Part shown: positions 33,115 through 37,498 of the stretch, piece after piece
Numbering within the stretch: position 1 is the stretch's first letter
How the letters are laid out: every line of letters begins with the position of its first letter
Assembly: GCA_030524635.1 (NCBI GenBank)
Contig: JAUNGG010000004.1
Location: 50,077-114,076, forward strand
Direction of reading: 5' to 3'
Source: Lachnospiraceae bacterium
GTDB taxonomy: Bacteria; Bacillota; Clostridia; Lachnospirales; Lachnospiraceae
Length of the DNA: 64,000 nucleotides
The notes under the pieces: model-generated
What the model saw: only the letters and a program-made list of their open reading frames with translations
Database searches by the model: none
What the model was told of the DNA's origin: nothing
Made by a program: the position numbers and the translations under genes

Positions 33115-34395
33115 TCATCCCTTCACCACGCCTACCGTCTTCAGCCGTTTTACCGGCACTACCAGATCCGATTGATTCTTCATTACTTCCTCGATATCCT
33201 TGTAGGCGAACCGGCTCTCCTCTGCCACATCGGCCTTTCCCTTCTTTCCAAGTACCACGCCCTGGTCTGCCAGGTCACGGATCACCTGCTCACAGGAGAA
33301 GGCCTCCATGGCTCCCTTTCTGGAATACCGTCTTCCGGCTCCGTGGGAGGAGGAGCAAAAGCTTTCTGGATTTCCTTTTCCCATCACCACGTAGCTGTAG
33401 GAACCCATAGCGCCGGGAATCACCGCCAGCTCCCCATTTCCTGCATGGACAGCGCCCTTCCGGTGCACCCACACCTCCCTGCCGTGATGGGTTTCCAGTG
33501 CTGCATAATTATGATGACAATTCATGTCGTGGGAAAATTCCAGGTTTAACTGGGTATATTTTCCGATCCACTTTTCCATGACCGCCTTCACCACCAGCAT
33601 CATCTTCTCCCGGTTTTCTCTGGCAAAATCCATGGAAAGATTCATCCAATTCTGATACTGCTTTCCTTCCGCCGAATCCGCGGAAAGAAATGCCAGCCGG
33701 TACTCATCCGGAACCTGGCTGTACCATCTGCGGTTTAACTCTCTGGCCTTATTATGAAAGTAATCACACACCGTCTTTCCAAAATGACGGCTGCCGGAGT
33801 GAAGCATCACAGCCAGGTATCCCTGATCATCCACCTGAAGCTCGATAAAATGATTTCCGCCTCCCAGCGTTCCGATCTGGAAATATCCTGCCTCCAGCTG
33901 GCCTAACAGCTCTCCGTCCTCCTCATACCGCTCCATCTCATCAAAGGCCCGGTCTAAGGTATAGCAGGGCATCACAGTCTTGTGATGAGCAAAGCCTACC
34001 GGAATATTCCGCATGATATCTCCTATCATCGCCTGGATCAGCGTCCCATTGCCGGTCATTACCTCCTGGATCTCCTCCAGGCGAATATTGGTCTCCGTGT
34101 AGGCCATGCCGCAGCCGATATCCACTCCTACTGCATTGGGAATGATCACACCTTCTGTGGCGATCACACCGCCGATGGGCATTCCCATCCCGGCATGGGT
34201 ATCCGGCATCAGACAGACCGGGCCAGCTAAAAATGGAAGCTCTGAAAGGTGGTATGCCTGTTCCAGGCAGCTTCCCTCCAAATCCTTTTCATTCTGCAGC
34301 CAAACCTTGATTGGGACCTTCATTTTGTCCTTATCGTATAATACAAACATACCCTCACATCCTTTCCTCTTCATTTCGTATGTTTCACTCAACAT
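33115..34395 (-). CDS. rtcB: RNA-splicing ligase RtcB
   Basis: Hallmark motifs MPDTHAGMGMPIGG, GGNHFIE, HNYA, HRKGA and SHGAGR. The start is uncertain among M1, M8 and M16 (34350). Confidence 0.85.
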   Translation of the reverse strand: MLSETYEMKRKGCEGMFVLYDKDKMKVPIKVWLQNEKDLEGSCLEQAYHLSELPFLAGPVCLMPDTHAGMGMPIGGVIATEGVIIPNAVGVDIGCGMAYTETNIRLEEIQEVMTGNGTLIQAMIGDIMRNIPVGFAHHKTVMPCYTLDRAFDEMERYEEDGELLGQLEAGYFQIGTLGGGNHFIELQVDDQGYLAVMLHSGSRHFGKTVCDYFHNKARELNRRWYSQVPDEYRLAFLSADSAEGKQYQNWMNLSMDFARENREKMMLVVKAVMEKWIGKYTQLNLEFSHDMNCHHNYAALETHHGREVWVHRKGAVHAGNGELAVIPGAMGSYSYVVMGKGNPESFCSSSHGAGRRYSRKGAMEAFSCEQVIRDLADQGVVLGKKGKADVAEESRFAYKDIEEVMKNQSDLVVPVKRLKTVGVVKG

Positions 34396-34636
34396 CCTGC
34401 TTTCTGCTTCCTGCCTGCAGGCTCTGTTGTTTCCTTACGTCCATATCTTAACAAAACTGGGAACAGGAATCATTTTAAAAAAGTTGCGAACCTGCAAAAA
34501 CCAGAGAAAAGCTTTTCCCAATTTCCCAGCAATCAGAATTTATTTGACGAATGTTTTTTTAAAGATATAATAGGTATAAGGTTATCATCACAATCATACA
34601 CGTTGCCCCATTCACAGGAGGATCATCAAATACTCT

Positions 34637-36627
34637 ATGTCAGAATTTCAGGAATTAATCAAAAACTTCGACCGGATCCGGGATTATATGCGCCAATTCT
34701 TCGTCTACGGCTACAAAAGCCGCAGCGACTATGAAGGAAAAAGCGCCCGGACCTATGATAATGAGCGAAGGCGGATCGAAAGCTGGCTGTCCGGCTGCAT
34801 CCAGTCCGGCTACACCCAGAAGGAAAAGCATGTCTATATCAGTGTGGACAGCAAGACTATCCCGCAAAACCCGCTCTATGCCGCCTGGAAATCCAAAAGC
34901 TTTACGGATAATGACATCCTTCTCCACTTTTTCCTCCCGGATCTTTTGTGGGAACGTCCGGAAGGAATGACTTCCGGAGAATTATGCGATGCTATATCTG
35001 CAGAATATGGCATGGTATTTGACAGCCAGACGGTCCGGCTGAAGCTGAAGGAATATGAGCGCCTTGGATTTCTGGAATCCCAAAAGCAGGGAAAACGGCT
35101 GTGCTACCGGCTGCAGCCTGCGTCATTTGGACCAGCCTGGCAGAGCCTTCTCACTGCCGTCACCTACTTTCAGGAGGCTGCTCCCTTCGGCTTTATCGGC
35201 AGCACCATTTTGGATCATGAAAATCAGGAAAATCAGTGGTTTTCCTTTAAGCATCATTTTCTTGTACATACCCTGGAGGACGGTGTGCTGGCTGACGTTC
35301 TTGCCGCCATGAAGGAGCACCGCAGCATTGCCTTTGAAAATAAAAGCAGCCGCAGCGGAGCCACCACCAGCATGAGAGGGTTTCCCTTAAAGATCTTTGT
35401 CAGCACCCAGACCGGGCGGCGCTACCTCTGCCTGTATCTGGAGGAACGGCGGCGCTTTACCAATGTCCGCCTGGATGCCATGGCAAAGGTGACGCCCCTG
35501 GATGTCTGCAGCAGCTATGACCGCAGGCAGCAGCTTCTTTCAAAGAACCTGGCAGCCGATCAGACTGTCAGACCGCCGGTCAGCCAGCTGCCGGCGCCGC
35601 GCCCTCCCGGGAAAGCGCCTGCCTGCCGCCCCAGGAGCTGTTCGATAAAATATACGGCTGCTACTACCAGGCAGTGCGCCGGATTCTTTTGGAAGCAGCA
35701 GCGGAGCCTGTTTCTAAAAACCGGATTCGTGAGCTTTCCATGAAGTACGGCTACTTGGAAAGCTGCCTGACTATTGTGCCCAAGCTGACGGAAGGGGGCT
35801 GGCCCCTCCTGAAGGAGACCGATTCCCGTTACCGATCTGTGCTCCTCCACCCGGAGCTTCTTCTCCCTGGACACCTGCCCCTCACCCTGCTTCAGAAATC
35901 CTGGCTGAAAGCCCTCCTTTTTGACCGGCGGATCCGGCTTTTCATAACAGCAGAGCAGCTTGACCAGCTGAACTGCTGGCTTTCCGATACAGAGCCTTTA
36001 TACTGCCAGGAGGATTTTTACTACTTTGATCAGTATCTGGATGGTGATGATTATACTTCTTCCTCTTATCAGGATCACTTCCAGACCATTCTGCGGGGAC
36101 TGACGGAAAAAAGAGCTCTGATCCTTGTCTACGAAAACCGCCGGGGCCAGTGCAGCACGTTAGAAGCGGCTCCCTACCAGCTCCAGTATTCCTCTAAGGA
36201 TGACAAGTTCCGGCTATGCTGTCTGAAATATTCCAGACACGGCTTCAGCCAGAATACCATCCTTAACCTGAGCCGGATCAAGGCCTGCCATCTGTCCCAC
36301 CAAGCAGTTCCTGAGAATCTCCGGCACCAGGCCTTCCGTCCTATTCACCCCGCTTCCCAGCCTGTGGTCATCCGGATCAGCGGAGAACGAAATTCCCTGG
36401 AACGCTGTATGCTCCATTTCGCCAACTACGAAAAGCATACCCGATACGAGGAAGAGACTAAAACCTGGCTCTGCTCCATCTACTATGACCTGGCTGATGA
36501 GACGGAGCTGCTGATCGAGCTGCTGTCCTTCGGCCCGGTGATCCAGGTCTTAGGACCGGAAAGCTTCCTGTGCCAGATCCGCTGCCGGGTACAGAAGCAG
36601 CATGAATTATTTTACAGGGCGGTGTGA
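34637..36627 (+). pseudogene. Tandem WYL-domain regulator (wHTH-WYL ... wHTH-WYL-WCX), apparently disrupted by a frameshift near 35520-35620
   Basis: Two overlapping ORFs (34637..35743, frame 2; 35674..36627, frame 1). Protein-like sequence continues across the junction only with a frame switch. The first half has a GRRYLCLY WYL-like motif. The second half has FRLCCLKY ... and a C-terminal LLIELLSFGPVIQVLGPESF WCX-like tail. Confidence 0.5.
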
Positions 36628-36676: not shown

Positions 36677-37498
36677 TCACGCCTCGTCCATCTCAACCTC
36701 CCGGAACCCGCCTCCCGGCTTCAGCACCGTAAGCCGCGTAAAGCCGCATTCTGCTGCCAGCTTCCGCGCCTGGTCAAACTGAAATCCAATGGTGTTAACA
36801 TTGTGGCTGTCGGAATTAATCATGATCCGGCCGCCCATGGCATGGAGCTCCTTTAAAAGAAACCTGGATGGATAAGGCTCCTTCCGATAGCCTCTGGAAA
36901 TTGCACCGGTATTGATCTCAAAGGGCAGCCCTGCATCATTCAGCTTCCGCATGGCAGCCAGCGCCGGTTCCCGGTACTCATCTTTTGTCTCATCAAAATG
37001 GCGAAAACCCTCATTCCACTTGGTAAGCAGGTCGAAATGACCCACCCAGTCACATCCGGTCCGATCAAAAACCGTGGCTTCCAGCTCATAGTAATCTTTG
37101 GCAAAGGCATACCAGTCTTCCTTCCACAGCCGCTGAACCGCGCTGACCAGCTTTTCTTCCGTATCATCCACGATAACAAATTCTCCATCCTTCTCCAGAC
37201 AATGGGTAGAGCCAATGGCATACTCTGCCCTCTGAACCGGTCCCAGACAATCCAGCTCGATCCCAATATACAGATTCATCTTCCCGGCATATTCCTCCCG
37301 GAGCAGGCTGATTTCGCGCTGATAAGCCGCTAATGCCTGATCTGACATTCCAAAGCCCGGTTCTACATTGGAAAAATCGGCATGACCGGACAGTCCAAAA
37401 TCAGTAAAACCCATCCGGTACGCTGCCTCCACCATTTCCCTGGGCGTATTTTTCCCATCACAATATGTGGTGTGGGTATGAAAATCTGCTTTTATCAT
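36677..37498 (-). CDS. hisK: PHP-family histidinol-phosphatase (HisJ/HisK type)
   Basis: N-terminal DFHTHTTYCDGK metal site and C-terminal INSDSH site. Confidence 0.75.
   Translation of the reverse strand: MIKADFHTHTTYCDGKNTPREMVEAAYRMGFTDFGLSGHADFSNVEPGFGMSDQALAAYQREISLLREEYAGKMNLYIGIELDCLGPVQRAEYAIGSTHCLEKDGEFVIVDDTEEKLVSAVQRLWKEDWYAFAKDYYELEATVFDRTGCDWVGHFDLLTKWNEGFRHFDETKDEYREPALAAMRKLNDAGLPFEINTGAISRGYRKEPYPSRFLLKELHAMGGRIMINSDSHNVNTIGFQFDQARKLAAECGFTRLTVLKPGGGFREVEMDEA

Follow-up and report, generated by a model that had tools for sequence, protein, structure and literature searches.

A PafBC-like two-module WYL regulator gene divergent from rtcB, probably inactivated in one Lachnospiraceae strain by a 451-bp deletion between short direct repeats

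The window, that is, the whole stretch of 64,000 nucleotides analysed here, carries on its forward strand two overlapping open reading frames, ORF1 (34637..35743, 368 aa) and ORF2 (35674..36627, 317 aa), which lie in different frames beside a divergently transcribed rtcB gene (Table 1). The original prediction took them for a tandem-WYL, PafB-PafC-like regulator gene split by a switch of frame, with protein-like sequence in both frames, WYL-like motifs in both ORFs and a WCX-like tail in ORF2, and each of these points holds, the motifs being supported by Pfam, homologue and fold comparisons. In ORF1, residues 217-286, which span GRRYLCLY, match the Pfam WYL domain (PF13280) with 22.0 bits against a cutoff of 21.8. 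The ORF2 matches to WYL (16.2 bits) and to WCX (PF25583; 14.7 bits, residues 270-307, spanning LSFGPVIQVLGPESF) are sub-threshold, and a search of the ORFs against NCBIfam returned zero matches. When the ORF1 and ORF2 halves were stitched together and used as the query, the homologue search gave 3538 matches, many of them with a precomputed PF13280 assignment; single proteins of 779-898 aa among them cover both halves, and many of 371-476 aa cover the N-half only. The WYL core of module 2 aligns to that of module 1 (hhalign E-value 1e-4) and, by fold, to the second module of PDB entry 6sj9. Judged by the homologue search and the fold comparison, both halves are genuine WYL modules, well above chance.

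ORF1 begins at ATG 34637, which is preceded by the Shine-Dalgarno sequence AGGAGG. The frame of ORF2 is open from position 35521, and the first ATG, GTG or TTG codon within it is GTG 35674, so that this start of ORF2 is a mechanical one. The GC-rich tract noted in the original prediction is real (75% GC at 35560..35640 vs 54% for the whole gene), and in the ORF2 frame it encodes, at every residue, the linker of the intact allele described below (PGSRSDCQTAGQPAAGAAPSRESACLPP). The description of the junction as Pro/Arg-rich nonsense on both sides is accurate for the tail of ORF1, whose 62 residues from about position 35554 are the sole out-of-frame nonsense, and inaccurate for the head of ORF2, which is authentic linker sequence in its own frame. 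The TGA codon that ends ORF1 overlaps the Met codon of the sequence ...LSMKYGY... in the ancestral frame, and in the intact homologous locus L001 these four bases, ATGA, simply belong to the coding sequence. Module 2 is complete in the ancestral frame and has neither a start codon nor a Shine-Dalgarno sequence at its natural N-terminus, ELFDKIYG.

Table 1. Coordinates of the features of the WYL gene and its surroundings in the window
Feature	Position	Strand	Basis or remarks
rtcB (RNA 3'-phosphate/5'-OH ligase), intact, divergent	33115..34395	-	Pfam RtcB, 361.9 bits
-10-like hexamer TAAGAT of the inferred rtcB promoter	34445..34450	-	exactly 18 nt downstream of the box
Conserved 22-nt box TTCGCAACTTTTTTAAAATGAT, candidate asymmetric operator, intact	34469..34490	-	about -52..-31 of the inferred rtcB promoter
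Sigma-70-like promoter ahead of the WYL gene, TTGACG-16 nt-TATAAT	34544..34571	+	consensus match only, 11/12 positions
Module 1 remnant, original frame	34637..35546	+	N-terminal helical extension, winged HTH, helical linker, WYL (GRRYLCLY)
Deletion junction, one surviving ACCTGGC copy	35547..35553	+	alignment to L086 and three-way alignment
Inter-module linker remnant, disordered, ancestral frame (PGSRSDCQTAGQPAAGAAPSRESACLPPQ)	35548..35634	+	near-identical to the P0123 linker; holds the 75%-GC tract
Out-of-frame ORF1 tail, Pro/Arg-rich, 62 aa	35554..35743	+	three-frame translation
Module 2 (winged HTH, helical linker, WYL, WCX)	35635..36627	+	aligned to an Enterocloster natural C-half gene and P0001
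PHP-domain gene, 273 aa, convergent with the WYL gene	36677..37498	-	neighbour in closest relatives only

The closest intact allele (locus L086) shares 98% nucleotide identity with the window in the gene and its flanks and has the same gene order: PTS-EIIA, Band_7, RtcB (-), WYL gene (+) and PHP (-). Its WYL gene is one ORF of 813 aa (P0123), and this protein falls in the 90% cluster of ORF1; the intact fused protein is thus longer than the ~655 aa originally proposed. The two genes align with 40 mismatches in 1991 aligned nucleotides, and the only indel is a gap of 451 nt that follows window position 35546. The region 34637..35546 is collinear with nucleotides 1-910 of the L086 gene, with zero indels. 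In L086, the segment missing from the window is bracketed by two copies of the 7-bp direct repeat ACCTGGC that lie 451 nt apart, and a three-way alignment demonstrates that the window tracks the left flank of L086 through ACCTGGC and then its right flank. The reading frame shifts at the junction because 451 = 3x150+1. Alignment to intact WYL homologues, suggested in the original prediction as a way to place the indel, thus located a lesion of another kind than the 1-nt indel within the GC-rich tract that had been suspected, a candidate that we rejected given zero small indels across the 1991 aligned nucleotides. The GC-rich tract sits 3' of the junction and is what remains of the natural inter-module linker, and the size of the lesion excludes an error of base calling.

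The residues lost are about 305-454 of P0123, equivalent to residues 344-455 of the more distant homologue P0001, and comprise CWGVSFGG...EKMYEMY together with the beginning of the linker. In the AlphaFold2 (AF2) model of P0001, from which the domain layout of the module 1 remnant was also borrowed, this stretch is the predicted WCX domain of module 1. The linker evolves with a dN/dS of about 1.1, and residues 449-490 of the P0001 model are disordered (pLDDT below 50). Among the 86 loci collected, only the window and its identical copy L002, a Logan assembly identical to the window across 7529 nt, have an N-half match that ends at about residue 307. The intact single ORF sought in sibling genomes was found in L086, and the sibling MAG L087 has the WCX domain, the linker and the C-half in a single frame; the NCBI protein of the latter (MDO5549681.1, 329 aa) owes its internal start solely to the truncation of the gene by the contig end. 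With L001 as the reference, two deletions of 120 nt and 334 nt were implied; we abandoned this interpretation, since the closer allele L086 attributes the 120 nt to linker variation that it shares with the window and puts the real deletion at 451 nt. Neither the deletion junction nor the flank common to both alleles was matched in scans of JGI metagenomes (0 matches each), and this collection is therefore mute on allele frequencies. Upstream of the junction, at a distance of 25-55 nt, eight window-specific substitutions that cause four amino-acid changes are clustered within about 30 nt (35491..35521), where L086 and L001 differ from each other at just one position. This cluster could be a recombination patch or could represent mutations tied to the deletion or its repair.

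The family to which the gene belongs was found in at least 584 species-level genomes, mostly from Lachnospiraceae and other Clostridia; all loci are from Clostridia/Bacillota with the exception of one MAG labelled Spirochaetaceae. Among 86 sequences, 80 were classed as split, including the window and L002, and six as fused. A fused double-WYL protein had been considered unusual in itself, which does not hold, since the closest relatives of the window gene are fused and natural fusions of actinobacterial PafBC are known (PMC6789036). According to our survey of start sites in split loci, the natural C-half genes start with M-E-L-F-x-x-I-Y, usually after AGGAG or GGAGG. The AF2 model of P0001 (pTM 0.81) consists of two modules, each with a winged HTH, a helical linker, a WYL and a WCX domain. 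The winged HTHs of the two modules are formed by helices 113-143 with strands 146-159 and by helices 493-536 with strands 543-552; ArsR, MarR and SmtB are among the weaker fold matches, and there is a weak sequence match to ArsR. The two WCX domains occupy model residues ~334-446 and ~728-811. A WCX domain thus follows each WYL domain in the intact relatives, and in the window that of module 1 is deleted, whereas that of module 2 is present and its region matches 6sj9. The window copy is therefore a defective member of the HTH-WYL-WCX group of WYL factors (class A, and class C for the fused form, of PMC6789036). Foldseek ranks the fused PafBC 6sj9 first (E-value 1.3e-18, 790 columns), followed by DriD, RNA-polymerase-bound PafBC, CapW, BrxR and WYL1. 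Sequence-only searches of the PDB were marginal, with profile E-values of 0.003-0.3 and chains 7p5x/9fnd as the best. The N-half proteins of Enterocloster (P0079, P0089, P0098 and others) differ in length by steps of 5 aa (451, 456, 461, 466, 471 and 476), which results from a variable count of Ala/Gln-rich pentapeptides (AAQAG/AAQTE-like) in the N-terminal region; the Enterocloster regulator gene thus carries a hypervariable 15-nt tandem repeat.

These comparisons make it probable that the locus once encoded a fused, PafBC-like two-module WYL regulator of about 813 aa, and that a 451-bp deletion between repeats turned it into a recent, strain-specific pseudogene; recent pseudogenisation was among the options in the original prediction. 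The NCBI annotation of the fragments as two 'WYL domain-containing proteins', MDO4328142.1 and MDO4328143.1 (312 aa, start TTG 35689), is misleading, as they are pieces of one pseudogene. In the ancestral protein, a disordered Pro/Ser-rich linker would have connected two HTH-WYL-WCX modules, and its gene would have been transcribed divergently from rtcB. Loss of 451 bp between the ACCTGGC copies in the lineage of this strain would then have taken out the module 1 WCX domain along with the beginning of the linker. Short direct repeats flanking a deletion are a hallmark of replication slippage or microhomology-mediated repair; whereas the deletion is read directly from the alignments, one of these mechanisms presumably produced it. 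Translation from ATG 34637 would now yield an HTH-WYL protein with 62 nonsense residues, and module 2, intact in the old frame, would be stranded without a start codon or ribosome-binding site of its own. The loss of one WCX domain and the uncoupling of the modules most likely inactivate the regulator, as expected by analogy with PafBC, where the two WCX domains form the dimerisation module (PMC6789036). The expected outcome would be that rtcB, which retains its conserved promoter box intact, is misregulated: the gene would become uninducible or constitutive, depending on whether the regulator is an activator or a repressor.

The remaining parts of the gene bear little trace of decay. Relative to L001, dN/dS is 0.15 for the N-part and 0.10 (0.095) for the C-part, compared with 0.085 for the flanking RtcB gene and 0.064 for the PHP gene. 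When changes were polarised with L001 as the outgroup, the synonymous/non-synonymous counts were 5/6 (N-part) and 6/2 (C-part) for the window and 5/1 and 6/3 for L086. There are no extra stops or indels in the window gene, and neither dN/dS nor the polarised substitutions, which are few, indicate significant relaxation. The deletion looks recent because secondary lesions and an excess of non-synonymous changes are lacking, or else the fragments keep some function; the lack of decay fits both. The ORF1 product, an HTH-WYL protein without WCX, might retain some DNA binding, given that HTH-WYL proteins without WCX occur naturally as class B (PMC6789036). The TGA of ORF1 overlaps the in-frame ATG 35741, so that reinitiation could give module 2 minus its first 35 residues.

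Three other readings of the locus were weighed. It is unlikely that the deleted form is an assembly artefact or a minority variant, with the intact 813-aa gene as the dominant allele and the contig as a collapsed or rare deleted haplotype. The window does come from a MAG, its sole second occurrence, L002, may share a sequencing run with that MAG, and the substitution cluster upstream of the junction could hint at a patchwork of strains. However, a 7-bp repeat is not bridged by de Bruijn assemblers, the same 7.5 kb of sequence came out of two different pipelines, and the structure of the junction is exactly that of a biological repeat-mediated deletion. Of the two forms of this explanation, an assembly collapse is less likely than a minority variant.

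We consider it improbable, and rather more so, that ORF1, as a class-B-like HTH-WYL protein, cooperates with ORF2, translated from the ATGA at 35741 or GTG 35674, in a functional two-gene intermediate between the fused and the split forms. Every natural N-half retains the WCX domain that the window has lost, and ORF2 would miss 13-35 conserved N-terminal HTH residues and would have no Shine-Dalgarno sequence, even though the family is split in most genomes (80/86 sequences), both parts have a low dN/dS and zero secondary lesions, and NCBI annotates two proteins. The stop/start overlap ATGA, which would suit such a pair, is plain coding sequence in intact alleles, and the arrangement is known from one sequence only. 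Two separately translated genes with their own starts, as the original prediction allowed, are also at odds with the natural second genes, which have M-E-L-F-x-x-I-Y and a Shine-Dalgarno sequence, whereas the window has P-P-Q-E-L-F and neither feature. Finally, a programmed frameshift or a phase-variable switch in the GC-rich tract that restores the fused protein is very improbable. Two overlapping frames do run across a GC-rich stretch, but a slippery heptamer context is absent, intact relatives keep the region in one frame, and even a perfect frameshift would leave a protein without one entire WCX domain. Tandem Repeats Finder detected no tandem repeat at 35400..35800, and the longest homopolymer is 5 nt, so that the site of the frame change lacks the slippery repeat or homopolymer typical of phase-variable or programmed-frameshift genes; as a 451-nt loss cannot revert, the slippage-based on/off switch that had been envisaged is refuted. 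The favoured reading thus remains a fused regulator gene disrupted by a repeat-mediated deletion.

The neighbourhood of the WYL genes points to rtcB as their presumed regulatory target. Of 82 non-redundant related loci, 51 have an RtcB gene no more than 6 kb away from the WYL pair, and in 37 this gene is adjacent and divergent; in the window, gene callers start rtcB at an ATG that gives 411 aa (33115..34350). The intergenic region contains the conserved box, whose consensus TTCGCA(A/G)C-TTTTTT-NAAATGAT was found in all 38 rtcB-adjacent intergenic regions examined, always pointing to rtcB, and in 70/82 loci when up to four mismatches were allowed. There is exactly one match to TTCGCARCTTTTTTNAAATGAT in the 64-kb window (chance expectation 0.01), and the 8-mers of the box occur in 20-26 of 37 regions vs at most 6 in shuffled sequences. 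A TATAAT-like hexamer (at least 4/6 matches) is located exactly 18 nt after the box in 58/59 loci, whereas at 17 or 19 nt most hexamers score 0-2. A sigma-54 promoter upstream of rtcB was considered by eye and discarded, as the spacing does not fit and the TATAAT hexamer is conserved. Even loci whose WYL proteins are only 35-45% identical have the box in conserved form, and it stays beside rtcB when other genes separate rtcB from the WYL pair. We regard it as a candidate operator that may mark a possible regulon. The PHP gene on the other side is probably not part of the system because it neighbours the WYL gene only in the closest relatives (L001, L006-L009, L012, L086 and L087).

A DUF2828/DUF7788 gene follows the box in 11 loci, and one such operon runs on into rtcB. 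In L018, L021, L049, L072, L076, L077 and L082, where rtcB is absent or farther away, the box lies ~250-350 nt (where measured) before a gene whose DUF2828/DUF7788 product has ~500 aa; in L082 rtcB comes next. A PDB sequence search with the DUF2828/DUF7788 protein gave nothing significant; it may be related to TROVE/vWA (Ro-like) proteins. In a divergent subgroup, L050 (~6022), L056 (~8158), L057 (~5013) and L058 (~8236), the box closely follows the WYL pair on the + strand; two of these loci, L050 and L056, have a distant RtcB-like gene (27-30% identity) after the box, and the link between the box and RtcB thus survives a rearrangement of gene order. L043 has two same-strand copies of the box 1.6 kb apart (~3949 and ~2365), which suggests a second regulated promoter.

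The gene linkage and the conserved box suggest that the rtcB promoter is under the control of the WYL pair. The box is non-palindromic, as would fit two different HTH domains. PafBC and DriD, the closest structural matches, are activators; because of this, and because the box overlaps the -35 position, we lean somewhat towards an activator of rtcB rather than a repressor. A hallmark of the PafBC group is the switching-on of DNA-damage genes by sigma adaptation, triggered by ssDNA. A more specific proposal is tentative: the family may constitute an undescribed clostridial RNA-repair regulator, a PafBC-like WYL heterodimer or fusion that would bind TTCGCAAC-N6-NAAATGAT in the rtcB (or DUF2828/DUF7788-rtcB) promoter and respond to a nucleic-acid ligand of RNA damage, e.g., cleaved tRNA or rRNA fragments. 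Our literature search for WYL with RtcB and for DUF2828 with RtcB found no paper on such a linkage, and an earlier mention is possible. The frame split is ordinary strain-specific gene loss, and the lead worth following is the rtcB-linked family and its operator. Two-module WYL regulators, fused or split, are already precedented by PafBC; here the lesion led to an uncharacterised but widespread family that is tied to rtcB via a conserved promoter box at a fixed spacing. This family bears on the control of RtcB outside Proteobacteria and on sensing by WYL domains beyond single-stranded DNA, and for experimental work it provides a defined candidate operator, a pair of 98%-identical alleles of which one is intact and the other naturally deleted, and examples of the split as well as the fused form.

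PafBC is usually encoded by two genes and is occasionally fused (PMC6789036). Like PafBC, including the fused protein of Arthrobacter aurescens (PDB 6SJ9), the present family combines two homologous wHTH-WYL-WCX modules, encoded by adjacent genes or by one gene with a flexible linker. Its box (TTCGCAAC-N6-NAAATGAT, 18 nt from the -10 element) is presumably unrelated in sequence to the PafBC promoter motif. Unlike PafBC, the family occurs in Clostridia/Lachnospiraceae and not in Actinobacteria, has an extra N-terminal extension of ~100 residues, and is linked to rtcB or a DUF2828/DUF7788 gene and not to the proteasome/Pup locus (for PafBC, see PMC6789036). The two-module PafB plus PafC architecture is shared, split or fused, whereas sequence identity to PafBC is as low as 12-13%, or 12-15% across the fold alignments, which is not a close sequence relationship. 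The family is therefore not a PafBC orthologue, given the other phylum, the other locus and this identity.

DriD of Caulobacter, CapW and BrxR have the same domain order as each module of the family (fold E-values of ~4e-7, 3e-5 and 6e-5, respectively). They are autonomous regulators of adjacent stress or defence genes. In contrast to these homodimers of one polypeptide, the family has two diverged modules and a non-palindromic box, as expected for a heterodimer. With respect to its presumed role, the family resembles RtcR, the CARF-AAA+ sigma-54 activator of rtcBA in Proteobacteria, which likewise carries a domain for sensing nucleic acids and is transcribed in the direction opposite to rtcB (PMC7790460, PMC4012209). 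The two regulators are non-homologous: the family has a WYL/Sm-fold sensor rather than CARF, has no AAA+ domain, and is associated with a TATAAT-type and not a sigma-54 promoter. If the tentative RNA-repair role is true, the family would be a non-homologous analogue of the CARF regulator RtcR, and the strain of the window would be a natural null mutant.
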